A DNA stretch of 64,000 bases from an uncultured Dehalococcoidia bacterium (GTDB lineage: Bacteria > Chloroflexota > Dehalococcoidia > SM23-28-2 > RBG-16-64-32): contig CAZYOV010000002.1 of assembly GCA_964649215.1 (NCBI GenBank), forward strand, positions 2,288-66,287, in the 5' to 3' direction. The notes beneath the pieces are model-generated. The model did not search any database. It was not told where the DNA came from and was given only the letters and a program-made list of their open reading frames with translations. Each line of letters begins with the position of its first letter. Within the stretch, counting starts at the first letter, position 1. Shown here piece after piece: positions 3,683 through 22,132 of the stretch. A program made the translations under genes and the position numbers.

Positions 3683-3696
3683 CGGTCGCTCTCACT

Positions 3697-3735
3697 CCGT
3701 TTGACACCCGCCCCGCCCAGGCGCATAACCGCGGC
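3697..3735 (+). repeat. motif-1 copy A: promoter-like repeat TTGACA(3701-3706)-N17-CATAAC(3724-3729); a perfect TATAAT also at 3753-3758
   Basis: ccgtttgacacccgccccgcccaggcgcataaccgcggc, 48 bp upstream of the collagen-like CDS. Confidence 0.6.
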
Positions 3736-3782
3736 CTGGCCGACAGCTAGGGTATAATCGGCGGCACGGAAGGGGGTGCGTT

Positions 3783-4340
3783 ATGCGCCGATGGTTCTCC
3801 AATCTCGCCTCGCAATTCTCTGCGTTTCCCCGCTGGTTATTGGTTCCAGCCTTCTTTCTCGGATGGCTCGCGGGGAGCTTTGGCGTAAGTTTCGCCACCG
3901 TTGAATGGCGGGCACCGGATGAAGCTCTAGTGCAAGACATACAGCAGCAGGTTGACGAGTTAGCCCTAGAGGTCGCGAAGGGGAAGCCTGGGCCTCCTGG
4001 ACCCGAAGGCCCACTAGGCCCAGATGGACCATCAGGACCAAGGGGACTCGTGGGGGAACCGGGGCCAGCAGGGCCTCCAGGACCAGCGGGGCCCCCAGGG
4101 CCGCAGGGGACACCGGGTACCGTTACGAACATCGATCAGTTCGTTCAAAAGGACATCCTGAGCCTAAAATCGACTCTAGACTTGGACGACCTTCAGAACT
4201 GCCTTAATGATCTCCAACGAGCCATTGACAAAATAGACCGGGCGCTACAGGACATAGACTTCGCTCTAAGCTTCGACAGTTTCTACATCGCACCAAGTAT
4301 ATTTACCCCGTTCAGCTGTGGTTCTGTCTCAGGCTTCTAG
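3783..4340 (+). CDS. collagen-like triple-helix repeat protein with N-terminal TM anchor
   Basis: 185 aa. TM segment ([18 protein letters not shown]), then about 25 uninterrupted G-X-Y triplets ([46 protein letters not shown]), then a C-terminal non-collagen domain. Confidence 0.65.
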
Positions 4341-4576
4341 CGGGCCGGGGCTGGTTGGGAGGAGCCTGGGGAGTATCGGAGCCTGCGAGCGACGCACGAC
4401 TAACCGCATCGGCTAGAAGGGCATGAGGCCAGCTACCCGCTCGGCATCTAGAATGACGGCTTCATCAGAAAAAAGGGCAGTAAATTCGCCGTCGCTAGGA
4501 GCACCCTAGCCGGGAGCCCAGGGCTCAGTCGTACGCATGAACACTAATCTGCCTTAGTGCTAGCCAAACATCTGGC

Positions 4577-5191
4577 CTATTTGATAGCCAGCGCGCACAA
4601 CGCACGCGGCCTGGTTCGCCTCATCTCCAGGTGGGCCTCTCGGAAGCCGGCCTGCGTCAACATCCCCACGATCTCCTCGCCGGTGTACAGCGCGTAGTAG
4701 TGGTCGGTAAAGCGCCAGCGTCCCAGCTCCTCTTTGGGCGACACCGTTATCGCGATCAGGCCACCCGGCTTCAGCACCCGCCGCAGCTCTTGCAGAACCG
4801 CGTCCGGCTCCGGCCAGAAGTAAATACCCTGGATCGCGCACGCCTTATCGAACCAGCTATCTTCGTATGGCAGATCCCGGGCTTCTCCCCACCGTAGTTC
4901 CGTCCGCCCCTCTCTGATCGCCGACGCGTTTTTTATCCGCGCCTGCTCGACCATCGTCTCAGAGTGATCGATTCCTGCGACGAACCCCGATGAAGCGAGC
5001 TGCGACATCCGTCTGATTGCCACCCCACTCCCGAAACCGACCTCCAGAACACGATCCTGGGGCCGTATATTCATCAATCGGGTAGTCCAGATGTTGATCG
5101 GACGGTTCACAAGCGCCATCCCGCGGCCCACCAACCTGCCCAACAGCCCCCTCGGTCGGCGCAGCTGTGAACCCATCATCCTCGAGATCAA
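4577..5191 (-). CDS. class I SAM-dependent methyltransferase
   Basis: Motif I VLEVGFGSGV and post-I LKPGGLIAITV; 204 aa. Confidence 0.7.
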   Translation of the reverse strand: MISRMMGSQLRRPRGLLGRLVGRGMALVNRPINIWTTRLMNIRPQDRVLEVGFGSGVAIRRMSQLASSGFVAGIDHSETMVEQARIKNASAIREGRTELRWGEARDLPYEDSWFDKACAIQGIYFWPEPDAVLQELRRVLKPGGLIAITVSPKEELGRWRFTDHYYALYTGEEIVGMLTQAGFREAHLEMRRTRPRALCALAIK

Positions 5192-5390
5192 GCGTTATCC
5201 CTCCTCACCCCAGCGAGCGATCGTCACTCCGTCCTCAGTCTTCATGTACTGGATGCGCGGCTCCACAGCGACCCTATTCTACGTCATCACCCGCATCTTG
5301 GCAGCGGCCGAACTCGCAGTATCGACGCTAACAACCCTTAGTGTCACCTGGCGATTCCCGGTAGGGCAGGCCTCGACATAACCTTAGTCC

Positions 5391-5639
5391 GTGATCCGCT
5401 GTGCCTTCTGTCGCCGCCGCGCCGCTGGCGTGTTCGCCGCCACCGTCCTTGATGGGCCCCGGGAGGACGAGGACTCGTGGCGACGCGGACTCGCTCCCAT
5501 GTGCAAACGATGCCAGCGCATGCTGGGCGAGGCCGGACCGGAGGGCCGTCGGCTGAGGGACTCTAAGCAGCGCTGGTGGCTGGGCCATGGAATCGGTAAG
5601 GTCGGCGGCCAGAAAGCTGGTCCTGGTTCTATGCTATAA
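5391..5639 (+). CDS. small four-cysteine zinc-ribbon protein (ZR family, copy 1)
   Basis: CAFC...CKRC pairs. Conserved PEGRRL and WW.GH motifs shared with the ORFs at 8031 and 21828. GTG start. Confidence 0.45.
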   Translation: MIRCAFCRRRAAGVFAATVLDGPREDEDSWRRGLAPMCKRCQRMLGEAGPEGRRLRDSKQRWWLGHGIGKVGGQKAGPGSML

Positions 5640-5788
5640 TCCCTGTCCGAGTTGAAGCCGGATAACGAGGTACGAATTCGACCGAGGCCCGGCCTTCGCG
5701 GCTGGGCGATCTGGGCAGCGGCCGTGGCGATAGTGCTGCGGCTCAACGGCACCCCCCCCTCTAGGCGGCGGCTCCTGTCTGCCCTCCT

Positions 5789-5840
5789 TTGACCCACCCC
5801 CCGTACGGCGCTATGCTTCCCCTACTGGGAGGGCTACCTC
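5789..5840 (+). promoter_or_regulatory. motif-2 promoter-like element TTGACC(5789-5794)-N17-TATGCT(5812-5817) followed by conserved tcccctactgggagggctacct
   Basis: A second copy with the same architecture occurs at 46293-46352. Confidence 0.4.
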
Positions 5841-5965
5841 ATGGAGCCCCGATTCGCTCTTCGCCATGTCCGGCGACTAGAGGAGGAGACCCAACGTGCA
5901 TTCGGTCGCACATCCGGGTAGCGAGCTTCGAGGGCAGGTCGAGGAGAATTAACCACTCCAGCTCC

Positions 5966-6003
5966 CCGTTGACACCCTCCCAGCCCAGGCGCACAATCGC
6001 GGC
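5966..6003 (+). repeat. motif-1 copy B: TTGACA(5969-5974)-N17-CACAAT(5992-5997)
   Basis: ccgttgacaccctcccagcccaggcgcacaatcgcggc, about 180 bp upstream of the 6180 CDS. Confidence 0.6.
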
Positions 6004-6179
6004 ATGGGCCGCAGGAAGGGCGTAACCATGAGAGGCTGGGCTGCCCTTGGTAACGAACATTAGGTACAAAAATACTCAGACCTCGCCATGCGGCGTTCGA
6101 AGCTCCTTGGCTATGATTGACGATCAGGGCGAGATGAGGCGGATGATCGCGCAGTAGTAGCCGCTCCGGATATACTAGC

Positions 6180-7556
6180 GTGAACACTGACTACGAAACG
6201 CTGACGGATCGGGAGCTCGCCGTGGCGGCGCGAGGGGGCGACCAGCGGGGGCTGGCGACGCTGTACGACCGCTACTTCCTGGGCCTGTACGACTTCGCCA
6301 TCCGCACTCTGCGCGACACCGACGCGGCGGCGGACGTCGTCCGGAAAACGTTCACGGAGGCGTCGCGGCAACTGGGCGAGGGGACGGTCCCGGAGAGCGT
6401 GAAGGCGTGGCTCTATGGCACCGCCCTCAGAGAGGCCACCACTGGGACGCGGCAGACCCCACCGCAGGAGGGCGGGCGTCGGCAACAGGCCGGGGCGCTC
6501 CCCTCGTTCGTCGAGATCGATTCGGCCCGCGCGCCTGACCCTCAGGCGCTCCAACGAGACGGGGATCTGAGGGAGCTTGTCTGGCAGTCCGCGACCGAGC
6601 TCAGCCCCAGGGAGTACGCTCTCCTCGACCTTCGGCACCGGCGCGAGCTGACCACCGCCGAACTGGCGGCGGCCGTGGGGATCGGCGGAGACACCGCCGA
6701 TGCCACCATCTCCGCGGTCAGCGACACACTGGAGCAGGCGGTGGTGACGGCGCTGCTCGTGCGACGGGGACGCCGTGACTGCCCCGAGCTGGCCGCGCTC
6801 CTGGATCGGACCTCCACCCCGGAGGTGCGACAGGCCGTCCTGGCGCACGCGCAGGAGTGCCCGCGCTGCCAGAGGACCCCAGCCGACTACCCATCGGCGC
6901 TCCAGATCCTGGCCGCCTTCGCGGCGGTGCCGGCGGCAGCCGGCCTGAAGGAGGTGATCTGGCTGGCCGTAGTGAGTACCGGGGCGCCAGCAGAGCCCGT
7001 TGCCGCCGCTCCTGCCGGGCGCGGGAGGCCGCTGCTCATAGCACTGCTCGCCGGGCTTGTGGCCCTAGCGATCGCCGTGGCCCTGATCCTCCTGCTCGAC
7101 TCCGGCGGCGACGATGGGCTGGGCAACCCGGACGACATCCGAAGCACCAGCCACGGGATCGGTGAGCCGTCGAGCGAAACGGTCGTGAGCTTGGTGTGGT
7201 CTCGGCAGGAGGGGGTCCTCGCCTACTCCGTGTCGTGGAGCGGCGACCGGTTCGAGCTTCCCGACGAGGTCGGCGACCTTTCCGGCGACGCAACGGACGC
7301 GATGAGCCCTCAGCTCACGCCCGGGGAGTGGTACTTCCACCTGCGGACCCAGCACGAGGATGGGACATGGACCAACACGGTCCACGTCGGGCCGTTCCAG
7401 ATCGTGGCCGAGGCAACCCCTACGGCCGAGCCTACGGCCGAGCCGACGCCCTCGCCGAGCCCGCAGCCGACACCCTCGCCGACCCCGGAGCCGAGCCCGA
7501 GCCCCACGCCGGAACCCACGCCCTCGCCGACGCCTGAGCCCACACCCACACCCTGA
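6180..7556 (+). CDS. ECF-type sigma factor fused to anti-sigma (zf-HC2-like), TM helix, extracytoplasmic domain and Pro/Thr-rich tail
   Basis: Sigma-70 region 2 (GDQRGLATLYDRYFLGLYDFAIRTLRDTDAAADVV) and region 4 HTH (LSPREYALLDLRHRRELTTAELAAAV). Cys pairs CPELAALL..HAQECPRCQ. TM segment LLIALLAGLVALAIAVALILLL. C-terminal PT-repeat tail (EPTPSPSPQPTPSPTPEPSP..). GTG start. Confidence 0.6.
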   Translation: MNTDYETLTDRELAVAARGGDQRGLATLYDRYFLGLYDFAIRTLRDTDAAADVVRKTFTEASRQLGEGTVPESVKAWLYGTALREATTGTRQTPPQEGGRRQQAGALPSFVEIDSARAPDPQALQRDGDLRELVWQSATELSPREYALLDLRHRRELTTAELAAAVGIGGDTADATISAVSDTLEQAVVTALLVRRGRRDCPELAALLDRTSTPEVRQAVLAHAQECPRCQRTPADYPSALQILAAFAAVPAAAGLKEVIWLAVVSTGAPAEPVAAAPAGRGRPLLIALLAGLVALAIAVALILLLDSGGDDGLGNPDDIRSTSHGIGEPSSETVVSLVWSRQEGVLAYSVSWSGDRFELPDEVGDLSGDATDAMSPQLTPGEWYFHLRTQHEDGTWTNTVHVGPFQIVAEATPTAEPTAEPTPSPSPQPTPSPTPEPSPSPTPEPTPSPTPEPTPTP

Positions 7557-7709
7557 GTGGCGCCAGGAGCTGTTCGCGGGCCTCATCACCCTCTGAGTAT
7601 GGGCGTGCGGCCCGCACTGTAGGCACGTAGGGGATTATTGTCAACAAGGAGGATTGCGTAGTGGGAGGGCGGCTGCGTGTCGCTGCTTGCCTCTGCCGCC
7701 ACCACTGGC

Positions 7710-7750
7710 CCGTTGACACCCGCCCACCCCAAGCGCACAATCGCGGCGGC
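7710..7750 (+). repeat. motif-1 copy C: TTGACA(7713-7718)-N17-CACAAT(7736-7741)
   Basis: ccgttgacacccgcccaccccaagcgcacaatcgcggcggcgggcagtg. Confidence 0.6.
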
Positions 7751-8030
7751 GGGCAGTGAGGTCGCCCCTCCTCAATGGTACCCCCTTGGGCAGCGCGGCT
7801 TTGCTGTCCGCCCGTCACTTGGCTGCTGTAACATCCCATCGTCAGTCGGTGTTTTACATAGTGGCGGAGGCACCACCACCAGGTGATGGTGCAGCGTTCC
7901 TCAACTGACGCGGGGGGTACGTGGTGCCTCTTCCCAAAGACACCCGTGGCACGACGGTGCCAGGCAGCCGAGACACTCACCAAGACACACCCATATCGGA
8001 CTTGAGCCGCGCTCCTCGCTACCCTGAGCG

Positions 8031-8304: not shown

Positions 8305-8309
8305 CGCCG

Positions 8310-8345
8310 CCGTTTACACCCGCCCAGCTCAGGCGCACAGCCAAA
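8310..8345 (+). repeat. motif-1 degenerate copy (TTTACA..CACAGC) immediately 3' of the ZR gene
   Basis: cgtttacacccgcccagctcaggcgcacagcc. Confidence 0.4.
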
Positions 8346-8988
8346 AATAAACGGGCGCAGCGGCCCTGTCGCGAAAACCGCTGCGCCATCCCTCAGCCAT
8401 GGAGCCGAGAGGCATGATTATACCACTCGAAGCCTTTTTGCAAACCTCTCAAAATATAGGGCCTTTTTGCGGCCCCCGGAATGTCCGGGGTGAAGCCTAG
8501 TATCTGTATAGGGAAACGCAGATCGGAGACCCGTCCCTGAGAGGCCCCTACCCCCTCCCCGCCCTGGCCCGTCCCTAGATAGCGCCTCACGCCCCGCCCT
8601 TAGGCATGGGAGGGTAGGACTCAAACCCCCATCGTGGGTGCCGGGGGCTGAATACAATCCTGTATTGCGTTGTCGCTAGATAGAGAGTCCTATCTACCTG
8701 TCGTGGGTGACGGCCCAAAGAGACGGCCACGGGGGGATGGTGCCTATCTGGGCCGGTTGCCCGTTTGGGGCCTGCCCGTGACGGGAGGGTTAACCCCTTT
8801 TAGGGCCGTGTGTGTGGGCCGGTTAACCCTCTCCTGTACCTAGAGAGAGGGAGGGGATGGTGCAGCTCCCCACATCCTCCACACACATTCGGTGACTAAC
8901 GCAAGGCCATCCCCTCCCCATGGAGAGACGGGCCGTTGGCAAGTATCGTTGCTGGCAGAGGGATGCCGGTATTCTTTGTCCCTACAGG

Positions 8989-10606: not shown

Positions 10607-10715
10607 GGCCCGATCACCTTTCATGGCGAACCTTGTACAGTAAAGGGGCAGTTGCCAGACTTCTTAGTGTTCCCTCTCCGGGTGCAGACGTGAGGTTTCC
10701 TGGTATCGCGGCGTG

Positions 10716-11921
10716 TCACCGTGTCAACAGCCCGTCTACGTTCGCCACAGGCTTGCCTACGTCCATGCGGGATTGTTCGGGGATTTTGTTCCTTTCATTC
10801 ACTCCAACCATAGGGATATGGTTGGATGAAAGGATGAATGTATAATATCCCCGTCGTAGTTTGTGAATCTGTCCCGTCTGTACGAGGCCGTTGACGGCTC
10901 GTCGCACGGTGGTTTCGGAGAAGGGGCTGGCCTCCACGATATCCTTAAATTGCGCCCCTTTGAGCCTAGACGCTCCCCACTGCTTGAGCCATTCCTGGGC
11001 CCTGATCACCTCGCCGACGCCCTTATCCCCGGCCACCTCCGCAACCTCGAACTGGTCCTCTCCTCCCTTGAGTAGGAACAGCTTCTCGTTGCCGCCTAGC
11101 CATCGGTTCTTTGCCATGTCCAGCTTCACCGTGTCGCTGTCCACCGTCTCTAGGTTGAGGACGATATCGGCGCTCGCAGGACGGGCTGAGGCACCGCGTG
11201 CCTTATACACCTTCTTGGCAATTTCGCCCTTGCCGATCTGCTGAACCTGAATCACTGTGGCGCTCGTGAGGGTGATCAGGTCGCGGATGGCCCGAGCCTG
11301 GGCGTTGGCCTCAGCGTTGTCCTCCTCTCGCTCGGTTCGGAAGGCGGCTGATATCGTGTCGATGATCACCACGTCAAAGCTGTGCTCCTTGACGACCAAG
11401 GCCAGCTTGTGGATATCCTCCATGAAGTCGATGGCCGGAATGAACGCCAACCCCTCGGGGCGGTCACTGGTAGAGATGACGTTGAGCTTGGTGCGGCGGA
11501 GGTTGTCAGGCGTCTCTAAGTCGAGGTAGAGCACGCGCAGGGGTCGGGGGAAGGGAATCCCCACGAACTCCTTCCCACGGGCCGCATGGACGGCCCAGTT
11601 GTAGAGGAGCGTTGTCTTGCCGACGCCGGAGTCGCCGCTTACGAGGACGTTGCTTCCGGGGAAGATGAATGGTCCCCACAGGCTTTCCGTCTCGCTCTCA
11701 TCTAAAGGTTCCAGGTCCTTCGCCCACAATAGGGAAAGTTCCTTTCTTTCAACATTATCCTTAGGGATGGATGGATGGAAGGAACGTTCGTCGGGCGCGC
11801 CGCCGTTGCGCCCGATGCCGTCCGCCCGTGGATGGGGTTCCGTGGTCGGACCCGCGTATTCGCACACGTGGCATCGGCCGTCGTCTGCCAGCAGGTGATT
11901 CCTCTCGCAAGTGGCGTTCAT
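10716..11921 (-). CDS. RepA-like AAA_25 ATPase (replicative-helicase-like) with N-terminal Cys motif and C-terminal wHTH
   Basis: Walker A VLVSGDSGVGKTTLL. Walker B/DExx region VVIIDTISAAF. 401 aa. Confidence 0.7.
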   Translation of the reverse strand: MNATCERNHLLADDGRCHVCEYAGPTTEPHPRADGIGRNGGAPDERSFHPSIPKDNVERKELSLLWAKDLEPLDESETESLWGPFIFPGSNVLVSGDSGVGKTTLLYNWAVHAARGKEFVGIPFPRPLRVLYLDLETPDNLRRTKLNVISTSDRPEGLAFIPAIDFMEDIHKLALVVKEHSFDVVIIDTISAAFRTEREEDNAEANAQARAIRDLITLTSATVIQVQQIGKGEIAKKVYKARGASARPASADIVLNLETVDSDTVKLDMAKNRWLGGNEKLFLLKGGEDQFEVAEVAGDKGVGEVIRAQEWLKQWGASRLKGAQFKDIVEASPFSETTVRRAVNGLVQTGQIHKLRRGYYTFILSSNHIPMVGVNERNKIPEQSRMDVGKPVANVDGLLTR

Positions 11922-13276: not shown

Positions 13277-14221
13277 TCACAGCCTGTCCCCCAACCGCAG
13301 CCGCTTGTGGGCGGCCAGCGCTCTCTCTTGCCCCGTGCTGGCGGCGTAGCGTAGAACCATGTCCCGCGACCGCCAGCCCATGAGCCTCATCAGGTCGGAC
13401 TCGGCGCCGCCGGCTGCCAGCCACGCGTGGGCAGCGCTGTGTCGCAGTATGTGTGGATGTATTCTGCCCAGCCCCGCCTGCTCGCCGCGGCGGCGGATCG
13501 CCAGGCGCAGCCCTTGGTCGGTAAGCGGCCCCCTACGCCCCAGCCACAAGGCCGCGGAGTGGGCGTCACGATGGGCGGCCCGGAGGCGGAGGTACTTGTC
13601 CAGCGCCCGCCCCGTCTTTGACCCTAGAGAGACGACGCGCCAGCGCCGACCCTTTCCTAGAACGCGAACGACGCCCTGATCGAGGTCTACGTCGTGCTGC
13701 TCCTCGTCGTCGGGACACCAGCGCAGGCCCAGGACTTCGCCGATGCGACAGCCAGTGTCGATCATCAGTCGGATGATGGCCATATCGCGACGGTCCTCAA
13801 ACCACTGGCCTTCGCAGGCCCGAAGCAGCTTCCGCAGCTCACCCTCGCCCAGGACGTCCGGCGCTTCCTCTGGGATCTTGGGTACCTGCATCCGCGCCAT
13901 TGGCGACTCCTTGATCTCGCCGTCCTCCACCAGGAATTTGAAGAACTGCTGAAGCGAGCGGTAGCGGTTTGCGGCGGTGGTGGCCTTGAATCGCGTCAAC
14001 AGGTCGGCGATGAACTCCTCGAGGTGCTCGCGGGTGATTGCCGACACGTCGCGGGGCATTCCCCGGTCGGCAAGGAAGACGTCGAGCGCCTTCACAGCCT
14101 CGGTGTAGACCTCCACCGTCCTGGGGGCGCGGTTGCGCGCCTGGAGATACCGCCGGAAGGGGCCGAGGTTGACTTGTATGCCGCTCTCCGCGACACTGTG
14201 TGCATGGGCGGCTTGGCGCAT
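13277..14221 (-). CDS. tyrosine recombinase/integrase (XerC/D-like)
   Basis: R..HxLRH..Y catalytic signature ([22 protein letters not shown]). N-terminal SAM-like domain. GGAGA SD before the ATG at 14221. Adjacent to tRNA-Gln. Confidence 0.8.
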
Positions 14222-14308: not shown

Positions 14309-14382
14309 TGCGGGATTGTGTAATGGTAGCACGGCTGATTCTGGATCAGTTAGTCTAGGTTCGAATCCTAGTCCCGCAGCCA
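14309..14382 (+). tRNA. tRNA-Gln (anticodon CTG)
   Basis: 74 nt with cloverleaf. Acceptor TGCGGGA/TCCCGCA. Anticodon stem GCTGA/TCAGT with loop TTCTGGA. T-arm CTAGG-TTCGAAT-CCTAG. Ends in CCA. Confidence 0.8.
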
Positions 14383-14387
14383 AGCGT

Positions 14388-14464
14388 GGCGCATTCGTCT
14401 AGTGGCCCAGGACACCGCCCTCTCAAGGCGGAGATCACGGGTTCGAATCCCGTATGCGCCACCA
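14388..14464 (+). tRNA. tRNA-Glu (anticodon CTC)
   Basis: Acceptor GGCGCAT/ATGCGCC. Anticodon stem CCGCC/GGCGG with loop CTCTCAA. T-arm ACGGG-TTCGAAT-CCCGT. CCA end. Very similar overall to canonical bacterial tRNA-Glu. Confidence 0.8.
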
Positions 14465-14481
14465 CATTTTCAATAGGGAAA

Positions 14482-14506
14482 CGCCCCCCGGAGGGGGCGT
14501 TTGTCG
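14482..14506 (+). terminator. rho-independent terminator hairpin after tRNA-Glu
   Basis: cgccccccggagggggcg followed by tttgtcgtcc. Confidence 0.55.
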
Positions 14507-14523
14507 TCCATTTGTCGTCCAAA
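14501..14523 (+). repeat. integrase arm-type tandem repeat ttgtcgtccatttgtcgtccaaa (attL side)
   Basis: 22 of 23 identical to 29349-29371; a related copy at 9787-9797. Confidence 0.55.
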
Positions 14524-14524
14524 C

Positions 14525-15670
14525 TCACGAGCCCGTCGCCGCCAGAACGCCGTCCAGCGCCGACGCCGCCTCCCGCTGCATGTCCGGCAGGACGTGGGAG
14601 TAGGTGTCTAGGGTGATACTCACCGTGGCGTGGCCCAACCGCTCGCTGACTATTTTCGGGTGGACGCCCGCCTGCAACATTAGGGTCGCGGCGGTGTGCC
14701 GCAGGTCATGCACCCTCAGCGGCCCCACGTCAGCCGCCTTGACGACGCCGTAGAACACGCGGCGAACAGTTGAGTCGTAGACGGGCCTCCCCAGCGCGTC
14801 GGCGAACACAAGACCGTTCTCCTCATAACCTGGCCCCACCTGCATACGCTGTTCCAGCTGCTCCCGGCGATGCTCCCTGAGAGCGGCCACCGTGTCGGGC
14901 GAGAGAGCGACGGGCCGCCGCGAGCGCTGCGTCTTCGGCTGGCTGAACACGATCCCCTGCCCCCTAGCGAACCGGGCCGTCCGCACGATCCTCAGCGTCC
15001 CCCCGTCTAGGTCGACATCCGACCACCGCAAGGCCAGCAGCTCGCCCGACCGCGCTCCGGTCTGTAATGCGAGGTAGAAAAAGGTGTAGTGCGGCGTGTC
15101 CGAAGCCGCCTCCAAGAACCGCTGCGCTCCCTCCGGCGAGAGGACGCGCATCTCCCTCCGCTGCGCCCTTGGGGCTGACACGGCGTCGGCAGGGTTTGCA
15201 GCCAGCAGTTGCCACTTCACCGCCCAGGACAGAGCCTCCCGCAAGATCGCGTGGTGCTCTTTGACCGTCTTGGCGCTTAGGGATTCGCCCCGCCCGTCGC
15301 GGCGTTGAAAGGACGAGTAAGCCGCCTGTATGTGGGCGGGCCGCAGGTCGCGCAGGCGAACCCGCCCCAGCGCCGGTGCCAGGTGGTGGCGGACGATGCC
15401 CTGATATCGTTGGAGGGTAGAGGCTGCGACCTGCTCGGTGGCATAATCCCGAAGCCAACGCTCCAAGAAGTCGCCGACCGTGATCTTATTGGGGGCGATG
15501 TCGATGCCGGTGTCCCGCTGGTGCAGCGCTTCGGAGAGGACGCGCTCGGCTTCCTTTTTCGTCCCCCTCACGGTAAGAAAGCGGCGCAGGCGTCGCCCCT
15601 GAGCGTCGCGCCCCAGGTCTATGGTGAGCCCCCAGCCATCTTTACCCCGTCTTCGGATGCTTCCGGCCAT
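14525..15670 (-). CDS. phage-type tyrosine integrase with N-terminal arm-binding domain
   Basis: 381 aa. HDLRHTAAT...LGHATVSITLDTYSH catalytic box. First gene next to the tRNA-Glu 3' end. Confidence 0.85.
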   Translation of the reverse strand: MAGSIRRRGKDGWGLTIDLGRDAQGRRLRRFLTVRGTKKEAERVLSEALHQRDTGIDIAPNKITVGDFLERWLRDYATEQVAASTLQRYQGIVRHHLAPALGRVRLRDLRPAHIQAAYSSFQRRDGRGESLSAKTVKEHHAILREALSWAVKWQLLAANPADAVSAPRAQRREMRVLSPEGAQRFLEAASDTPHYTFFYLALQTGARSGELLALRWSDVDLDGGTLRIVRTARFARGQGIVFSQPKTQRSRRPVALSPDTVAALREHRREQLEQRMQVGPGYEENGLVFADALGRPVYDSTVRRVFYGVVKAADVGPLRVHDLRHTAATLMLQAGVHPKIVSERLGHATVSITLDTYSHVLPDMQREAASALDGVLAATGS

Positions 15671-15822
15671 CGCCCTGCTCCTTTCGTCGCCTGCGAAACG
15701 CCTTTGCCTTACAAGCTGGACTGCAATACTTCTGAGAGTACGGTTGCAGAGGTTCGTACCTCTTGCCGCACACAGGACACTTAACTCTCATGCCGTAAGC
15801 GTAACGGCAGGCGTTACGATTG

Positions 15823-16053
15823 TCAAGCCTTTTCTTTGTTTAGCAGCGCCGGGGCGTCATCCCTGCCGCCCTCTGACGCACTGCACTGCTCTTCGATCCA
15901 CTGGTGCAACCGATGCCGGGGGAGGCGTATGATTCGGCCCAACCTGACATGCGGCAGCTCGCCGCGACGGATCAGTTCATACACGTGGTTAGGGTGGACG
16001 CGCAGCAGCTCGGCGGCTTCAGCGACGGTTAGCAAGGGGGCGCTATTGTCCAT
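15823..16053 (-). CDS. excisionase-family / AlpA-like HTH DNA-binding protein
   Basis: LLTVAEAAELLRVHPNHVYELIRRGELPHVRLGRIIRL; 76 aa, located just downstream of int. Confidence 0.6.
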   Translation of the reverse strand: MDNSAPLLTVAEAAELLRVHPNHVYELIRRGELPHVRLGRIIRLPRHRLHQWIEEQCSASEGGRDDAPALLNKEKA

Positions 16054-16502
16054 TTCCCTCCAGCCTTGGCTGATGGGCGGCGGGGAGGATGGGGCTCTCT
16101 TGCAGCTTGAGGTCGCCTACGGTGTCGCCTTCGCCGTCTTCGCCAAGCTCTCCCTTGACGATCTCGCAGATGCCCTCGCAGAGATGGAGAAGCTGTAGCT
16201 CGGCGCGGCTGAGATTGCGGGGCAAGTAGGGTGCCGCTCCGTGAAGGTTAAGGATACGGACAGCGGCCACGCGGATGTTTCTCAAGTCGTGCTGTCCGAG
16301 CAAGGGAAATCTCGCTTGTGCTACCCTAAACGTAGCCGTCGATTGCACGGCGTCCTCCAATATCTAGGCCCGCTCTCTGATTCGCGTCGGGGGCGGGTCT
16401 GGTGCTTTTCGTGAGCCCTCATAGCCGCCGAAGAGGGGAGGAACCACATGGATATGGCCCAGGGAAAGGAGAACCTGGAACCCCTTCGGCGACTGTGGCG
16501 GA

Positions 16503-18524
16503 TCACGAAGTCTCCCATGATCGGTCTAGCCTATGTTCGTCGCAGAATGGCTTGCCGTTAGGGGCGTAGTAGGTGGCCTCAGCCCCGCAGGTGAGGCAGG
16601 AATCGGGGCCGTCGTCAGGGCTCTCCATAGGCGGGGCTGACTCTTGGTGTTCCGTATCTGAGCCGTCTAAGGTGGGGTCGGTATTCTCTCCCCGCCTTAG
16701 GGCAGGGAGTTCCCACTTCCACTGTCCATCGGCCCCAAATCCAGACTTCACCGACCGCACGCCGAGCGCGTCCTTTGCCCCGCGAAGCGTTGCCTCTTTG
16801 ACCCCCGCCGCTGTCGCCGCCTTCCGTATTTCGGTCGGTGACACGGGGCCGCTAGAGAGCAAGTCTGTCAGAATCTCTTTGGCTTCGACTAGCGCGGTTC
16901 GCCCCTCGCCATCAGCCGGGGCCGCTAGTAGCTGGTGCGCCGTCAGATCGGACTTGCCCGCCCAGGTGAACCCCTGGCCGTCACTCCAGCGGTAAGTCAG
17001 CGTCTCAGCCGGTGCCGCCAGGTTGTTCTTTACAACGGCGAAATGGCGCAGCGTCGAATCGTCAGCGTCCTCGCCCACCAGCAAGACGCTACGGGGAGCT
17101 GCTGAGAAATCTATAGAGGCGAGAATCCGCTGGAAGGCGTTGCCCGCCAGCTTCTTGTTCAGGTGAATAATGCCCAGGACACTCACCTTAGTCTCTCCGG
17201 CCAGCCTTTGCAGGGGGGCCAGGACGCCGCGCACTTGGGCGGATACGTGGGTGTCCGTACCGCCGGTGAACGCTAGAACGGGGTCGATGATGATGAGCCG
17301 CGTCTCTGGGGTGAGGGCCTGTTCTAGCAACGGTAGGTGATCATGGAGATTAAAGGCTACCTCCCCCTCTGCCGTCCAGATCATCGTCAAGGCCGTAATC
17401 CGATTCACGTCGGCTCCGAGCGTGTCCAAGCGGGGACGAACAGTATCGTCTAGGTCGTCTTCGGCGGTGAGAAGTAGAACGTCCCCCTGCGGAGCGATCC
17501 CGCCGTCCGGCCAGGGGGAGCCGCGAGAAGTCCGAGCGGCGATGTCCAGGGACAGCATCGACTTCATTAACCCAGGGTCCCCGGCGATGATGGAGATTTT
17601 ACCCAGGGGAATACGCCCAGGCCAAAGCCACTGAACCTGACGGGGGGTTACGTCGCTCAGGCGCACCAGTACAGGGGCCTTCGGCGGGGCGTCCTCATTT
17701 TCGTGAACGCCGAACTGCGAGTCTGGAATATGAATGTTCCCGCCGGCGGGACGTTCTCTCTTGGGCTTGCTGGCAGGGTAGCGGGCGACACTGGCGGCGA
17801 TAGCCAGTACATCGCGGTTGGATAACGGGGGGTCGCAGCGGCCCGTGTTGGCGACCAGCAGGGCAGCAGCTATCTCAGCCTCCCCGAAGCCTCTGCGTCT
17901 CATCGTCCCCGCGAGGCTGGCGAGGGTACTGTTGCGCTCGCCGCTGGGGATGATCTCGCTAACCTCAGGGGCACGCTGCCCGTTCTGCATCAGCCTCTTG
18001 AACACGTCGGGCAGGGGGGCAGGCTTTAGATCACCAGGGGCGCACCCCACCTCCCATTCGTACCGACGCCCTGAGGCGTGCACGGAGGGCGGCGCTACGA
18101 TGTAGCCGCCCTTTGAGCGAACGTCTACGCCGGGCGCGATGCCCGCGCCGTTCCCGTAATCCTCATCGACGTGGTAGATAAGGTGACAGCCGCCGCCGCC
18201 GGTCAACGCGGTCACGGTATCGGGCAAGTCTCCCAGGTTGGCTACTGATTCGTCGCCGCCTGATCGGGGGTCAATGTCGATGGCGAGAAGGCCGTCGCCC
18301 ATGACTAACCCGATATTGGCCTGGGGCTGTTCGCCCCACCATTTCGTAATCGCCGCCACGTCAACCGTCGCGTCGCTCAGGCCATGCTCTGTCCTGGGAT
18401 GTTTGGCGGGGGAGCTACAGTCCCCTCGCTGACAGGAGCACTTGCCGTCAACGGCCCACTGTAGGGGGAAGACGGGCCGCCCCTGGGCCGCGTAGGAAAG
18501 GGCGGCGTCCAGCAGGGCGCTCAT
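16503..18524 (-). CDS. bifunctional primase-polymerase (Prim-Pol, PriCT) fused to RepA-like AAA_25 helicase ATPase
   Basis: Prim-Pol N-terminal domain (LLAIDIDPRSGG, GGGCHLIYHVD, SKGGYIVAPPSVH). ATPase segment KISIIAGDPGLMKS. The likely start is M at 18524, coupled by an ATGA overlap to the upstream small ORF. Confidence 0.75.
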   Translation of the reverse strand: MSALLDAALSYAAQGRPVFPLQWAVDGKCSCQRGDCSSPAKHPRTEHGLSDATVDVAAITKWWGEQPQANIGLVMGDGLLAIDIDPRSGGDESVANLGDLPDTVTALTGGGGCHLIYHVDEDYGNGAGIAPGVDVRSKGGYIVAPPSVHASGRRYEWEVGCAPGDLKPAPLPDVFKRLMQNGQRAPEVSEIIPSGERNSTLASLAGTMRRRGFGEAEIAAALLVANTGRCDPPLSNRDVLAIAASVARYPASKPKRERPAGGNIHIPDSQFGVHENEDAPPKAPVLVRLSDVTPRQVQWLWPGRIPLGKISIIAGDPGLMKSMLSLDIAARTSRGSPWPDGGIAPQGDVLLLTAEDDLDDTVRPRLDTLGADVNRITALTMIWTAEGEVAFNLHDHLPLLEQALTPETRLIIIDPVLAFTGGTDTHVSAQVRGVLAPLQRLAGETKVSVLGIIHLNKKLAGNAFQRILASIDFSAAPRSVLLVGEDADDSTLRHFAVVKNNLAAPAETLTYRWSDGQGFTWAGKSDLTAHQLLAAPADGEGRTALVEAKEILTDLLSSGPVSPTEIRKAATAAGVKEATLRGAKDALGVRSVKSGFGADGQWKWELPALRRGENTDPTLDGSDTEHQESAPPMESPDDGPDSCLTCGAEATYYAPNGKPFCDEHRLDRSWETS

Positions 18525-18739
18525 TGCATCAACCCAATTTCGAGCCGGGGGCACTCGGCTTCACGAAGCGCGGCTAGAAAATGATCTACGGCTTCGGGGA
18601 GCGCACGGCGGGCATCATCATCGCCGTAGACGGCCATCTCCGCGAGGCAGTCCAGCCAGGACGTGGCCTGTGTGGGCGTGCAGCAGGTCGGGGTGTGGCT
18701 AGGCCACCGAAAAGGTTGTGTGCTATGCTTGGAGTACAT
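18521..18739 (-). CDS. small hypothetical protein, translationally coupled to the primase gene
   Basis: 72-aa ORF whose stop overlaps the ATG of the prim-pol gene (ATGA). Confidence 0.35.
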   Translation of the reverse strand: MYSKHSTQPFRWPSHTPTCCTPTQATSWLDCLAEMAVYGDDDARRALPEAVDHFLAALREAECPRLEIGLMQ

Positions 18740-18796
18740 CGCGTTTCCTTTCGTCGGGCTACGCAGGCAAGCCGCCTTTCGGGGCGGCTTTGCTGT

Positions 18797-18979
18797 TTAC
18801 ACGGCTACTGATTCCCGTTCGTTCAGAATGCGCTCAACCTCGGATTCGGCGACGCGGTAGTGGCCGTTCGGCAACTTCTTCGCGTCGAGCTTGCCGTCAC
18901 GAATCCAATTCCACAGCGACCACCGAGTGAGACCTAGCTGCTGCTCAACCTCGATCAAGGGCAGCATCCGTTCGGGCAT
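18797..18979 (-). CDS. AlpA/excisionase-family HTH regulator
   Basis: 60 aa; LTRWSLWNWIRDGKLDAKKLPNGHYRV. Confidence 0.5.
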   Translation of the reverse strand: MPERMLPLIEVEQQLGLTRWSLWNWIRDGKLDAKKLPNGHYRVAESEVERILNERESVAV

Positions 18980-19091
18980 GGCCTTCTCCCTTCACACGAT
19001 CCATAACCTGAGTATCACGCGAGCAAGGGGAGTCTGAGAAGGAAGGGTTTTCCGAGTGGGGGTTGCCGCCCTTTAGATAGGGCGGCGGGGT

Positions 19092-19742
19092 CTAGTTCCT
19101 AGAGGGCGGCAACATTCGGGGCGGACTCTTTGCCGCCCCCACCAGGCCCCAGGCGCGAAGTTTATCGAGCCTGTATCGGAACGTCCTGTCAGCCATCCCA
19201 ACAAGGTCGGCGGCGGCATCGGCGCTTAACTGCCCACCACCTCCCTGACGCAAGTAGTGGACAGTGAGCGTGTCCAGGCTCTCATCCCAGTTCAGGAGAG
19301 AAAGGCGCGGCCTAAGCATCTGGGCTGCAAAGGCGACGTGAAGGGCGGCTTCCGCCTTCTGTAGCATTTCCCGCTCTGGGTCAGGAGTAGCTTCGAGAAG
19401 CGCAACGACTTCTGGCGTTGGCTCTACGGGAAACGGCTGCCCATCTTTGGCGAACGACTGACGGAGAACCTCACGGACAGCGGCTGAACTATCCTTGAAT
19501 TGATAGCTCGCGCCCTCTGGCGTTCCGGTCACATGAATGACCAACTCTTGCCGCCGCACGCAGGCAGGATCCCAATCATGGCGGTACGTCTCTCCTAGCA
19601 AGACAGACTGAAGGTGCTCCTCCATGCGGGGAGAGAAGTCCGAGTCTTCTGGAGCCGAGTACACGCGAAGCCCTTCCCTCAACTCAAGGAGCGCCTGCGC
19701 TCGATCCCTAACCAGGAGGCTCACGGGAATCCCGTGTATCAT
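19092..19742 (-). CDS. hypothetical regulator with C-terminal HTH
   Basis: 216 aa; C-terminal ..ADLVGMADRTFRYRLDKLRAWGLV; motif-1 copy D lies about 240 bp upstream in the correct orientation. Confidence 0.45.
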   Translation of the reverse strand: MIHGIPVSLLVRDRAQALLELREGLRVYSAPEDSDFSPRMEEHLQSVLLGETYRHDWDPACVRRQELVIHVTGTPEGASYQFKDSSAAVREVLRQSFAKDGQPFPVEPTPEVVALLEATPDPEREMLQKAEAALHVAFAAQMLRPRLSLLNWDESLDTLTVHYLRQGGGGQLSADAAADLVGMADRTFRYRLDKLRAWGLVGAAKSPPRMLPPSRN

Positions 19743-19985
19743 GCGTCCATGATATCGTCAATGGCGATGGATCGCAAGTAACTATACCAAGCGCCTACTC
19801 AGCTTAGCCCCTAGAAGCCAGTCAGAAGCCACCAGATGACCGAGAGACGCAGGCACCGCCCCAGCTCGTTGTATGGCTTGGCCGAACGCCACTCGCGGCC
19901 CACGGTACAATAGGAGACGCGGACGGCGAGCCTTCTGAGTTCCCAAGTCCTCCTAGCGATGGGGCTTGGCCCCTCAGACGCCCTG

Positions 19986-20026
19986 AGACGCGATTGTGCG
20001 CCTGGGGTGGGCGGCTGTCAACGGGG
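19986..20026 (-). repeat. motif-1 copy D (reverse orientation): TTGACA = rc of 20016-20021, CACAAT = rc of 19993-19998
   Basis: cgattgtgcgcctggggtgggcggctgtcaacgg. Confidence 0.6.
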
Positions 20027-20178
20027 CGTGTCGGGCTTAGCGTGTCACCCTCCAGGGGGGCTTGACAAACGATGGGGAAACGCTATCCTGTAATCCGTCA
20101 ACGAAATATAAAGCGACGGGCGGCGGTGGATGTCGTGGCCGAGATTCGGTCAAGAGGTAAAGGGAAGGGGGAGACGAG

Positions 20179-20598
20179 ATGATACGTCCGATCTTTGTTG
20201 TGGTGGGCCTAGCTGTCATTGCTGCATCTTTGATGGCCACCAACCATATTTCTCTCGTGCTTGATATCGACATCAAGCCGGGCAGCGACCCGAACTCGAT
20301 CAGGCCGCTCAATAATGGCCTCCTCCCGGTGGCCATTCTGGGCAGCGCCACTTTCGATGTCAACGACGTAGACGTGAGCACTCTGGCGTTCGGCCCCGAT
20401 GGCGCGGTGCCCGTTCACGACGAAGGGGGCCACTTGGAGGACGTGAACTCTGACGGCTTTACGGATCTGGTCTCTCACTATCGCATCCCGGAGACCGGCA
20501 TCGCGTTGGGCGATACAGAGGCCTGTGTCACCGGCGAGCTGCTCGACGCTACGCCCTTCGAAGCCTGCGACGACATCCGCACCGTGCCCGTGCCCTAG
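20179..20598 (+). CDS. small secreted protein with dockerin/EF-hand-like Ca-binding loop
   Basis: Signal peptide [34 protein letters not shown] resembles a dockerin repeat. GGAGA SD. Confidence 0.5.
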
Positions 20599-20630
20599 GC
20601 GAAGCTGGACTCCGGCGGCGACTCGCTGGT

Positions 20631-20672
20631 CGCCGAGATTGTGCGCCTGGGCCGGGCGGCTGTCGAAGGAGA
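20631..20672 (-). repeat. motif-1 copy E (reverse; -35 variant TCGACA)
   Basis: gagattgtgcgcctgggccgggcggctgtcgaagga, 33 bp after the stop of the 20179 gene. Confidence 0.5.
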
Positions 20673-20935
20673 CGCGAGGGTTCGGCTGGCAGCGGGGGCC
20701 CGCTCTCCACCGTGAGGCTGAGCTGGCGGGCCAAGTGTGGCTGGCCCTGGCCGCCGTGCTGGCGGGCGCGGCGCTCCTCTTCAAGCTGACCTAGGCGGAT
20801 CATGGTACGAAGGATCTCTCTCGTCTTCGGGACGGTGACCGGGCTGCTGCCCTGGCTGTTGGGCCTGGCAAGCTTTGCTCGTAGAGGCTACTATGAATCC
20901 ATGGAGGTCTTCGGGATGGGCACGGAGGGAGCGGC

Positions 20936-21313
20936 GTGACTTCGGCCAGGCTGCGTCGTATCGTGCTCGACCGGCCTATGCTAGCGGTCGGACTGGTCGC
21001 TGCTCTGACGGGGGCAGCGCTGGCCAGCGGGATCATGGCTTACGGCGCGATAGCGGACGGTACCAAGTACACAACGCTGTCCTGGGCGCTCATCGCCCCG
21101 GTCTGGGGTCTCCTGGCCCTGCTGTGGCTCCTCGTCCGTCGCTGGCCGCTGGCGGCGGCGGCTTCGATGGGCTGGCTGGCGATCTTCGCGGGTATCTACT
21201 ATGGCGATGTGTACGGCCAGTTTCCCGCCGCGCTCCTCTTCTTGCTGGGGACGGCGATAGTGTTCGTTCCCGACCGGGCGAAGGACGGCGGTACCCGCAC
21301 GATGCGAACGTAA
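20936..21313 (+). CDS. small integral membrane protein (about 4 TM helices)
   Basis: 125 aa; alternating hydrophobic stretches; GTG start with GGAGGGA upstream. Confidence 0.45.
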   Translation: MTSARLRRIVLDRPMLAVGLVAALTGAALASGIMAYGAIADGTKYTTLSWALIAPVWGLLALLWLLVRRWPLAAAASMGWLAIFAGIYYGDVYGQFPAALLFLLGTAIVFVPDRAKDGGTRTMRT

Positions 21314-21517
21314 CCGGCAAGCTACCTGTGGGGGCGTTGTCGGGCCGGAAGCCCTCGGCAGTGTGGTGGACGCCGCCCGGGAAGCGCCACCGCCTGTTGT
21401 TTTCAACACCAGCTCATTTGTGTGATCCGTAGGGAACGCGGATAGCGTCCCTGATAACCGCCTTGGGGGGGGGCTTCTGAGGTCACCCCTGGGCCACAAG
21501 GGCAGCGACCCAACTGC

Positions 21518-21558
21518 CGCCGCGATTGTGCGCCTGGGCTGGGCGGGTGTCAACGGGG
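21518..21558 (-). repeat. motif-1 copy F (reverse): tgtcaa 21548-21553, attgtg 21525-21530
   Basis: Immediately 3' of the ZR gene at 21562. Confidence 0.6.
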
Positions 21559-21561
21559 CCG

Positions 21562-21828
21562 CTAATCCCTCTCCGATTCGACGTGCTCCTGCATCGCGTT
21601 CGCGCCTGGCGAGTCGAAGTGCCGTCCAACGGTGTGCCCAGCGTACCACCACTCACGTGTAGACTTCAGTCTGCGCCCTTCGGGTCTGGCCTTGTCCAGT
21701 AGTCTATTGCAGCGTGGACAGATAGGCACTATCTCCCGCCGCCAGCGGTCGTTTGGCGCGTCCCGGTTGCGGGCAGTGACGGCCCACTGGCTGGGTGTGG
21801 GGGAACCGCAGAAGTGGCATGCGTGCAC
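21562..21828 (-). CDS. small zinc-ribbon protein (ZR family, copy 3)
   Basis: MHACHFCGSPTPSQWAVTARNRDAPNDRWRREIVPICPRCNRLLDKARPEGRRLKSTREWWYAGH; near-identical to the protein at 8031-8304. Confidence 0.6.
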   Translation of the reverse strand: MHACHFCGSPTPSQWAVTARNRDAPNDRWRREIVPICPRCNRLLDKARPEGRRLKSTREWWYAGHTVGRHFDSPGANAMQEHVESERD

Positions 21829-22084
21829 GGGGCTCAGGGTAACGAGCAGCGCGGTTCAAGTCCGATAAGGTTGTGTCGTGGTGATGGGGAAGAGGCACCA
21901 CGTACCCCCCGCGTCAGTTGCGGAACGCTGCACCATAACCTGGTGGTGGTGCCTCCTCCAGCAGTAAAACACCGACTGACGATGGGATGTTACAGCAGTC
22001 AAGCGACGCGAAGAGCGGACAGGAGTCGCTACCTGCATTGGGGGGCCAAACCATGGGAGGATTCTCATGGTGGAGCGACTTCCA

Positions 22085-22132
22085 CTGTCCGCCACCGCGA
22101 TTGTGCGCCTGGGCGGGGCGGGTGTCAACGGG
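22085..22132 (-). repeat. motif-1 copy G (reverse): tgtcaa 22123-22128, attgtg 22100-22105
   Basis: Upstream of the ZR copy 3 leader. Confidence 0.6.

Follow-up and report, generated by a model that had tools for sequence, protein, structure and literature searches.

The window considered here, a stretch of 64,000 nt from an uncultured Dehalococcoidia bacterium (Chloroflexota; assembly GCA_964649215.1, contig CAZYOV010000002.1, positions 2,288 to 66,287 of the forward strand), carries among other genes a collagen-like gene, a sigma/anti-sigma fusion gene, small zinc-ribbon genes, a cupin gene, a pair of tRNA genes and a 15-kb integrated island. Dispersed among these genes are nine copies of a short repeat that looks like a promoter and had been singled out in an earlier reading of the sequence (hereafter the original prediction). 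The repeat is real and non-random, not a chance pattern, and we propose, with a probability of about 0.7, that it is a lineage-specific, reusable promoter unit of the sigma-70 type, ~45 bp long.

The repeat and its copies in the window

An alignment of 98 copies from the window and related genomes defines a unit of ~45 bp, CCCCG-TTGACA-N17-CACAAT-CGCGGCGGCGG, whose conserved block ends sharply with CCCCG, 5 bp upstream of the -35, and with CGCGGCGGCGG, 11 bp downstream of the -10. From 5' to 3' it consists of CCCCG, the -35 hexamer TTGACA, a fixed G+C-rich spacer of 17 bp, the -10 hexamer CACAAT, which retains A-11 and T-7, and a G+C-rich discriminator, CGCGGC. Promoters of sigma-70 (group 1/2) are recognised by a -35 near TTGACA, a -10 whose second base is A and whose sixth is T, and a spacing of 16-18 bp. 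The repeat matches the consensus at 6/6 positions of the -35 and 4/6 of the -10, including both key positions, and its 17-bp spacing, exact across all nine window copies, is optimal. Hexamers and spacing of this type (TTGACA-17-CACAAT) occur in eight of the nine copies of the window and in the majority of the 101 gathered from the window and related loci (see below), and an independent promoter-consensus scan also calls the repeat sites.

Allowing up to two mismatches, TTGACA-N17-CACAAT has 11 matches in the window versus 1.44 expected, eight of which have the common spacer, while the 38-mer CCGTTGACACCCGCCCNGCCCAGGCGCACAATCGCGGC with up to three mismatches has 6 versus 0.00 expected (100 shuffles). 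A fuzzy 29-mer search recovered the degenerate copy at 8313, which brings the total to nine; pattern and fuzzy searches together place every copy at the coordinates and on the strand given in the original prediction. These copies, a partial tenth one and the features associated with them are collected in Table 1. The partial copy at 2732-2767, the remnant at 47246-47260, the half module at 5748-5783 and the hairpin modules behind copies 7713 and 22100 are additions to the original prediction.

Table 1. Repeat copies, hairpin modules and associated features of the window. ZR1 and ZR2 are zinc-ribbon genes; L numbers denote related loci.
Feature	Coordinates	Strand	Remarks
Partial tenth copy, spacer deletion (gTTTGTCAaaCCCAGGCGCACAATCGCGGCGGCAGC)	2732-2767	+	Upstream of gene 2888-3682
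Copy A	3696-3740	+	-10 decayed to CATAAC; 18 nt past stop of 2888-3682; 53 nt before ATG of collagen-like 3783-4340; 3' flank retains mutated remnant of module 5' arm
Type-A module, 3' half, no promoter	5748-5783	+	
Copy B	5964-6008	+	182 nt upstream of sigma/anti-sigma fusion 6180-7556 (extracytoplasmic function (ECF)-like)
Copy C	7708-7752	+	Runs directly into module 7748-7812; upstream of ZR1 (7921/8032-8304)
Module	7748-7812	+	GGCGGGCAGUGAGGUCGC...GCGGCUUUGCUGUCCGCC; first base ~7 nt past CACAAT of copy C; predicted fold -39.3 kcal/mol, z -4.2; covariance-model match 44.7 bits; sense more stable than antisense by 12 kcal/mol
Small terminator-like hairpin, then TTTT	7837-7855	+	25 nt past module; kept in paralogous copy
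Copy D, degenerate (TTTACA...CACAGC)	8308-8341	+	8 nt past ZR1 stop; no same-strand gene after
attL (tRNA-Glu 3' end)	14442-14466	+	Repeated at 29495-29519
Copy	19982-20026	-	250 nt upstream of 216-aa gene 19742-19092; within 15-kb island
Copy, -35 TCGACA	20627-20671	-	Converges on 3' end of 20179-20598 (+); same layout in L010
Copy, perfect 38-mer	21514-21558	-	8 nt past ZR2 stop; downstream, degenerate module start; converges on plus-strand gene 20936-21313
Terminator-like hairpin, then TTTT	21966-21984	-	25 nt past module 22093-22014
Module, type A	22014-22093	-	Member of alignment A2; covariance-model match 76 bits; predicted fold -37.0 kcal/mol, z -4.4
Copy, perfect 29-mer	22089-22133	-	Runs into module 22093-22014, upstream of ZR2
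Orphan adenylate cyclase 3' fragment (...GFEDPVRLYELRWREAA*)	22135-22209	-	Joined to repeat copy 22100
attR of 15-kb island	29495-29519	+	24-bp direct repeat of tRNA-Glu end
Copy	45815-45859	+	88 nt past response-regulator 45054-45731; points into stop codon of cupin 45866-46240
Remnant, first half of copy (GGTCAACCCCGCCGC)	47246-47260	+	Homology to L018 copy breaks within spacer

Among the genes that the original prediction had placed beside the repeat, the collagen-like gene matches Pfam Collagen, the cupin gene 45866-46240 and the zinc-ribbon genes 7921/8032-8304 and 21562-21828 are as described, and the sigma fusion 6180-7556 holds by sub-threshold matches to ECF sigma and anti-sigma models only. 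The presumed helix-turn-helix regulator at 19092-19742 is without any family match. The copy at 20638 had been said to follow a gene stop; no same-strand gene precedes it, and it converges instead on gene 20179-20598 (+), whose 3' end it faces. The collagen-like protein (3783-4340, +) has 185 aa, an N-terminal hydrophobic segment and a triple-helix repeat (36.6 bits). Its gene would be driven by copy A, with its decayed -10; the perfect TATAAT reported at 3753-3758 is indeed present, 24 nt further on.

Distribution, placement and spread of the repeat

When one genome for each of 185,579 species was scanned for exact matches to TTGACANCCNCCCNNCCCNNGCGCACAAT, 43 stretches turned up in 13 species genomes, 10 of which are Chloroflexota/Chloroflexi/Dehalococcoidia metagenome-assembled genomes (MAGs) and one an unclassified 'uncultured bacterium' MAG; two contigs with the repeat were binned as NC10 and Dadabacteria. 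Metagenomes contributed 60 further loci, many of them on SDBV/SDBS/SDBT contigs. The accession string SDBV01 occurs in the text of an article on Loki's Castle deep-sea sediment metagenomes (PMC6401483), and we infer that these contigs come from sediment. No copy was found in the viral contigs scanned, and literature searches returned no paper with the repeat sequence and nothing relevant on repeat or promoter motifs in Chloroflexi. The window shares 92-95% DNA identity, over parts of its length, with the MAGs B4T1B11, B8D1T2 and SRR22302374_concoct_75, and so comes from a close relative of these. A census of the 43 genome loci and the window (311 kb), allowing up to six mismatches, yielded 101 copies, on which the following analyses are based.

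Nearly all copies (98/101) are intergenic. The nearest downstream gene lies on the same strand for 64-65 of them and on the opposite strand for 28-30 (65/95, ~68%; binomial p = 4e-4). At 27 of the 101 copies, CACAAT is followed within 25-65 nt by a Shine-Dalgarno sequence and the ATG or GTG of an open reading frame (ORF) of at least 50 codons, versus 4/101 in the reverse-direction control (Fisher p = 8e-6), and the distance from the -10 to the start codon falls within 32-40 nt in 20 of these 27. A sigma-70 promoter is expected upstream of a gene, directed at it and at the distance of a leader; this is the placement found, with ~30% of copies as exceptions. Both the phasing of the start codons and the orientation bias uphold the original description of a promoter-type element. 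The downstream ORFs are unrelated to each other (66 ORFs form 54 clusters), and the genes served include, according to Pfam, GYD, dodecin, YbjQ, PEBP, cupin, glyoxalase, carbonic anhydrase, an AsnC-type domain, Zincin_1 and adenylate cyclase. Some copies precede tRNA genes. The tRNA-Gln/tRNA-Glu genes of L002 and L032 have a copy 58 nt upstream, which forms a tandem with a proximal TTGCGA-N17-TACAAT-like site, and tRNA-Val of L021 has a decayed one ahead of it.

Dispersed copies confined to intergenic DNA could also belong to a selfish repeat resembling repetitive extragenic palindromic (REP) sequences or miniature inverted-repeat transposable elements (MITEs), whose promoter-like hexamers would be incidental. 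The ~30% of copies in the 'wrong' orientation, the existence of decayed copies and the ~18-bp inverted-repeat arms around a variable centre in an attached module (see below) agree with this idea, which we nevertheless consider very unlikely. The original prediction had named hundreds of copies without orientation bias as the mark of such a repeat; we find tens per MAG, not hundreds, 65/95 of them on the strand of the next gene and with the tight start-codon phasing described above. The 45-bp core has no dyad or evident half-site symmetry and, as single-stranded DNA, is no more stably folded than its shuffles (z -1.0 and -0.15), for which reason hairpins of the REP/REPIN/MITE kind were rejected; the sole hairpin is that of the optional module, and the promoter lies outside its arms. 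Flanks are co-copied and junctions are not precise. No target-site duplication is evident by eye at the ends of the unit (no statistical test was made), no transposase or REP-associated tyrosine transposase (RAYT) was noticed beside the copies, although no systematic search was made, and the sense-strand folding bias of the module points to selection at the RNA level.

Several members of the family have decayed: the -35 is lost in copies from L018, L023, L042 and L009, spacer deletions are found in L021 and at window position 2742, and L010 has a 1-nt insertion. This indicates descent by copying, not convergent evolution. Flanking DNA was copied along with the unit, as in the orphan adenylate cyclase fragment (~75 bp, with no gene attached), which is 88-95% identical in nucleotides to the junction between cyclase stop and repeat in more than 10 other loci. 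Together with the diversity of the genes served, the decayed copies and co-copied flanks support the earlier claim that the repeat travels between small genes. The window and L018 lose synteny precisely at copies. The orthologous cupin gene has a copy beside it in both, in opposite orientation and with different neighbours, and after the orthologous luciferase-like gene the homology breaks inside the spacer. Recombination between dispersed copies, including inversion between inverted ones, accounts in our view for both the reshuffled small genes and the copies in the wrong orientation.

Synteny breaks at copies would be expected as well if the repeat were the recombination site of a cassette system, comparable to integron attC or dif modules and placed at the borders of small cassettes. 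The same can be said of the same-orientation arrays with a spacing of 250-900 bp and one small gene per unit (L043, L036, L013/L026 and window 19993-22128), and of copies lying, as they often do, 6-25 nt past the previous stop codon. We hold this to be extremely improbable. Sites of the attC type are imperfect inverted repeats (R''-L''/L'-R') that fold as single-stranded DNA and are linked to IntI; the core of the repeat has neither inverted-repeat arms nor a hairpin, its lack of fold leading us to reject this assignment too, and both integrases of the window lie at tRNA genes with an att repeat of their own. The breakpoints vary, falling also within spacer and flanks, and the start-codon phasing fits a promoter instead.

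The pair tRNA-Gln and tRNA-Glu (14309-14464) marks the border of the island. In L002 and L032, which lack it, the tRNAs are joined straight to the sequence that follows window position 29495, which identifies 14467-29519 as an integrated island. It contains a tyrosine integrase gene (14525-15670) and genes for Prim-Pol/AAA_25, HTH_17, a luciferase-like oxidoreductase and Fic, and all four minus-strand copies of the repeat lie inside it. The original prediction was therefore right in assigning copies to both the chromosome and an integrated element, since the island is bounded by the tRNA-Glu repeat and absent from related MAGs. The presence of copies in an acquired island agrees with a role of the unit in wiring up genes of foreign origin. 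A second integrase gene (13277-14221) and an AAA_25 gene (10716-11921), across tRNA-Gln, suggest a second element.

A few further observations concern the surroundings of the copies and promoter-like sites related to them. A gene family whose products end in ...GWYARRRWLR* is repeatedly convergent on the repeat (L031 6008-6067, L033 ~400-439, L018 3204-3250, L012 4581-4626, L019 and L036), with its stop ~8 nt past CACAAT, so that an RNA started at the repeat would lie entirely antisense to this gene. Short leaders often carry a TAG triplet a few bases before the G-rich ribosome-binding site (tagcaaggggg, tagaaggggg; window 3760-3782, L025, L029, L034 and L041); TAG lies within 20 nt of the start in 11/21 repeat-driven genes versus 60/246 others (p = 0.009). 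At 55119-55147 (+), upstream of gene 55396-56031, TTGACAGGCCAGTCACTTTCGCGCACGAT shares with the repeat its hexamers and the GCG ahead of the -10, with an otherwise unrelated spacer, and may show an ordinary promoter of this genome. A promoter-like sequence upstream of an HpcH/HpaI aldolase gene (30364-30409, -), GCGTTGACAGCCGCCCGGCGGCGTGATAGTGG, is identical in three genomes (window; L002 ~2944; L032 ~1132). Its first 16 bases are those of the repeat, after which the two part; this could be an ancient copy in decay, or a sign that the lineage prefers GCCGCCC after the -35.

A hairpin module attached to the repeat

Behind some of the copies the conserved 3' flank runs on for 65-89 nt as GGCGGRCAGTGAGGTCGC ... 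GCGGCnCTTGCTGTCCGCC, the flank common to the repeat being the start of a hairpin module that begins ~7 nt after the -10. The centre of the module differs wholly among at least six sequence types, and 11 of 14 representatives are predicted to fold into a single long hairpin (z -3.4 to -6.5), while the other three barely outdo shuffles (z -1.1 to -2.0). A covariance model built on 20 modules has 43 matches, 40 on the promoter strand and three weaker ones on the reverse strand (L061, L096, L046); the promoter is absent at only 2/53 module sites, both probably chance matches. In the alignment, which was itself fitted to the covariance model, 94% of cells are paired and double changes occur at 10 pairs. 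Double-change cells number 48 versus 13 +/- 2.9 in shuffles (0/500 reach the observed value), and slid controls pair at 36-56% of cells. RNA of the promoter strand folds better than its complement in 31/46 modules (mean -3.0 kcal/mol, p = 0.003), with 150 G-U pairs versus 81 in the complement, a bias that speaks for selection acting on an RNA made from this promoter.

At gathering thresholds Rfam recognised only the two tRNAs and no family for the modules, and at permissive thresholds it gave chance-level matches only (Chloroflexi-1 at 16 bits and microRNA hairpins). Chloroflexi-1 (RF01698) was rejected, as the module reaches 16.2 bits (E 0.55-1.9) versus a gathering threshold of 80 and does no better with it than with microRNA models. 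The hairpin RNA is previously undescribed and has no Rfam family; we consider it a candidate new RNA family with covariation support.

The order of events might be the reverse of what we propose, with a family of small RNAs coming first: the ancestral unit would have been promoter and hairpin, producing an RNA of ~70-115 nt whose unpaired C-runs pair with G-rich Shine-Dalgarno sequences, and the promoter-only copies would be truncated derivatives that drive their neighbours. This is an alternative to be taken seriously, even if we would bet against it. It would explain why the module is always attached to a promoter and in one orientation, why promoter-hairpin units occur in tandem (every 118 or 139 nt in L077, and several times over in L069 and L096), and why promoter-only copies retain the first bases of the 5' arm (CGCGGCGGCGG), copy A having a mutated arm; a hairpin followed by TTTT also lies 25 nt past both window modules. 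Runs of at least five C are present in 32/46 modules, their bases being unpaired in 57% of cases versus 27% overall, and GGGGG-type Shine-Dalgarno sequences are enriched in repeat-driven genes (5/21 versus 11/246 others, p = 0.005); as to a pairing of C-runs with such ribosome-binding sites, this is suggestive only. However, any part of the arm is found in only ~16/101 genome-locus copies, the position of the C-run varies between module types, and at other loci the module often abuts the next promoter, either another copy of the repeat or a member of a second promoter-like family, with no U-tract terminator; the targets and an evolution from long to short are conjecture.

This second family has the form cTTTGAC(G/C)-N17/18-TATGCTTcccctgctaggagRg and is found in the window at 5788-5817 and 46303-46332 as well as in L014, L018, L027, L031 and L092-L094. 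It often lies directly 3' of the hairpin module and precedes alpha/beta-hydrolase-adenylate cyclase paralogues (MEPR.../MPQIRF...); of the two window copies, one stands before a 26-codon remnant and the other before the luciferase-like gene 46401-47240. Beside the degenerate repeat copy at 8313 there is also a strong terminator-like hairpin (8354-8387, -) with a 14-bp stem followed by TTTATTTT, and a related sequence comes after modules in L060 and L061.

A proposed promoter unit with a fixed spacer

In the promoter unit that we favour, a housekeeping-type RNA polymerase holoenzyme would bind the repeat and begin transcription ~7 nt after CACAAT, within GGCGG. Depending on the copy, the product would be an mRNA with a leader of 25-35 nt and a Shine-Dalgarno sequence, a tRNA precursor, or a hairpin RNA of 65-89 nt (GGCGGRCAGUGAGGUCGC ... 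GCGGCnCUUGCUGUCCGCC), the first base of the hairpin being the first base of the transcript. The unit would have multiplied through copying and recombination that took pieces of the flanks along, and not through precise transposition, and the copies would then have served as recombination breakpoints, which would have left ~30% of them facing convergent 3' ends.

Several points weigh against this proposal. Transcription, its start site and the sigma factor used are all deduced here from sequence, and the genes were called by a simple codon-usage caller of our own that misses small genes. Some 30% of copies (28-30/~95) are directed at the 3' end of a convergent gene, which in 17 cases lies 11-60 nt away; the window contributes copies 20638, 21525 and 45820 to this group, and in L033 all four copies are antisense to called genes. 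The copies are not all independent, since several MAGs are so close to the window (92-95% DNA identity), and conservation estimates are inflated by the choice of loci with an exact pattern. Among copies not selected by the exact pattern, moreover, the spacer is at least as conserved as the hexamers, and a plain promoter needs neither a fixed spacer nor CACAAT over TATAAT.

Within the spacer only positions 6 and 13 vary freely. They are unlinked, vary in similar proportions in every MAG and behave as free positions within a constrained block, not as subfamily markers. The same gene precedes the repeat in the window (2888-3682), L053 and L061 with coding DNA ~70% identical; the intervals from its stop to the repeat (18, ~40 and ~66 nt, respectively) are unalignable, and still the repeat is ~95% identical. 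The retention of the spacer beside unalignable flanks implies that the block is maintained as a whole, by selection, gene conversion or both. Our preferred guess is contact with a protein, either a regulator or the polymerase, over -40 to +5, in addition to gene conversion. A promoter G-quadruplex or i-motif would call for every copy to retain four runs of at least three C (or G) separated by loops of 1-7 nt, and was rejected: CCCC-N7-CCC-N-CCC-NN-CCC exists only if position 6 is C, which is not the case in 36/101 copies (G in 29), the C-run thus being broken in ~1/3 of them.

If the contact were with one dedicated regulator, the fixed spacer and flanks could be its site, and the repeat the operator of a regulon that keeps its copies alike. 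The conservation of the spacer on a par with the hexamers, even where the flanks are unalignable, the free variation at two positions that mark no subfamilies and the bias of the cargo to small stress-type proteins are all in keeping with such an operator, which appears rather unlikely to us all the same: the core lacks dyad or half-site symmetry and is unfolded (z -1.0), and decayed copies with wrong spacing reflect descent by copying, which the operator model does not require. The original prediction had suggested the zinc-ribbon proteins or the fused sigma factor as this regulator, and we find neither convincing. ECF sigma factors recognise -35 elements like GGAAC and -10 elements like CGTC, unlike TTGACA/CACAAT. 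The 458-aa fusion protein has its sub-threshold matches to ECF sigma models and an anti-sigma model, and by established knowledge would be no reader of these hexamers; an ECF sigma-dependent promoter was rejected accordingly.

As for the zinc-ribbon genes (5391-5639, ZR1 and ZR2), copies bracket those of the window, a copy follows the zinc-ribbon stop in the window, L016, L010 and L012, and promoter and module stand ahead of two of the genes, which speaks for an operator read by their products. These genes adjoin the repeat in only ~4/43 MAG loci, however, and the family, with 14 close homologues that carry no annotation (one is named as a Dehalococcoidia MAG protein), has no match in Pfam, NCBIfam or PDB sequences; an AlphaFold model (pLDDT 75.5) has no PDB fold match with E < 1. 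With no DNA-binding family or fold and a place beside few loci only, they were rejected as readers of the repeat. ZR2 itself seems frameshifted at ~21829-21850 (-) by one extra C in a C-run, homologues such as P0009 reading ...RYPEPVHACHFCG in one frame; this may be a pseudogene, a sequencing error or a sign of a later GTG start.

All these features could be parts of one regulatory system, in which the invariant block would drive dozens of small stress-type genes as well as hairpin RNAs, the C-runs of the latter would pair with the GGGGG-type sites of the former, and the spacer would bind a master regulator. This is a distinctly unlikely scheme. If it were true, transcription and translation of a portable regulon would be controlled together, and acquired genes would join it simply by gaining a 45-bp copy.

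Significance and comparison with known systems

Uncultured marine-sediment Dehalococcoidia are not genetically tractable, and to our knowledge almost nothing is known about their transcription initiation. A nearly invariant unit of 45 bp offers a ready-made, testable promoter for this lineage that could serve in annotation, heterologous expression and the reading of metatranscriptomes. It also provides a clean natural case of promoter reuse, including on a recently integrated island, which bears on how acquired genes are expressed. The conservation of the spacer amid diverged flanks goes beyond textbook promoter function and points to a contact or a regulator; this and the family of hairpin RNAs most deserve further study.

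Correia elements of Neisseria are short dispersed intergenic repeats that provide promoters for neighbouring genes and give rise to hairpin transcripts; they have terminal inverted repeats, a TA target duplication and hundreds of copies. The repeat described here resembles them in being dispersed, intergenic and promoter-supplying, with a (predicted) hairpin transcript, but the hairpin with its inverted repeats does not include the promoter, we saw no target duplication, and copies number in the tens. LhrC of Listeria and RoxS/RsaE of Firmicutes are multi-copy, C-rich small RNAs. Like these, the predicted hairpin RNAs are short, sometimes in tandem and each preceded by its own conserved promoter, and their C-runs could pair with G-rich ribosome-binding sites; unlike these, they have no canonical U-tract terminator directly after the hairpin, and there is no sequence relationship. 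REP/REPIN sequences share with our family the intergenic location and, in the module, hairpin-forming inverted arms, and differ from it in that the core of our repeat is unfolded, orientation-biased and phased to start codons, with a low copy number and no RAYT noticed. Chloroflexi-1 RNA, a candidate small RNA of the Chloroflexus aggregans lineage (RF01698; Weinberg et al., 2010; PMC2864571), offers a parallel as a candidate restricted to a lineage of Chloroflexi, of which the module is not a member (16.2 versus 80 bits).

The closest described concept is that of putative mobile promoters (PMPs), upstream sequences of 50-100 nt with at least 80% identity ahead of non-homologous genes, in families of 2-93 members, some of which are common to different genera (Matus-Garcia, Nijveen, van Passel 2012; PMC3488235). 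Mobile elements, non-autonomous elements, recombination and horizontal transfer were proposed to spread them, and the wiring of acquired genes was proposed as their role; the main text of that study mentions no Chloroflexi (PMC3488235). Our repeat differs from PMPs in that a block of ~45 bp, just below the 50-nt cut-off, is nearly invariant, 17-bp spacer included, across several species-level MAGs, in that ~30% of copies are not upstream of a gene, and in that a subset carries a structured RNA. Its identity exceeds 85% over these ~45 bp, and over a greater length where the module is attached; by length the unit of ~45 bp is a borderline case. Most upstream genes differ from copy to copy, a subset having in common the adenylate cyclase 3' end or a zinc-ribbon gene. 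As with PMPs, a near-identical upstream sequence precedes unrelated genes, in a family that numbers in the tens and spans several species, and the four copies in the 15-kb integrated island recall the role that PMPs are thought to play for acquired genes. The family thus fits the concept of the putative mobile promoter, by the recombination route.

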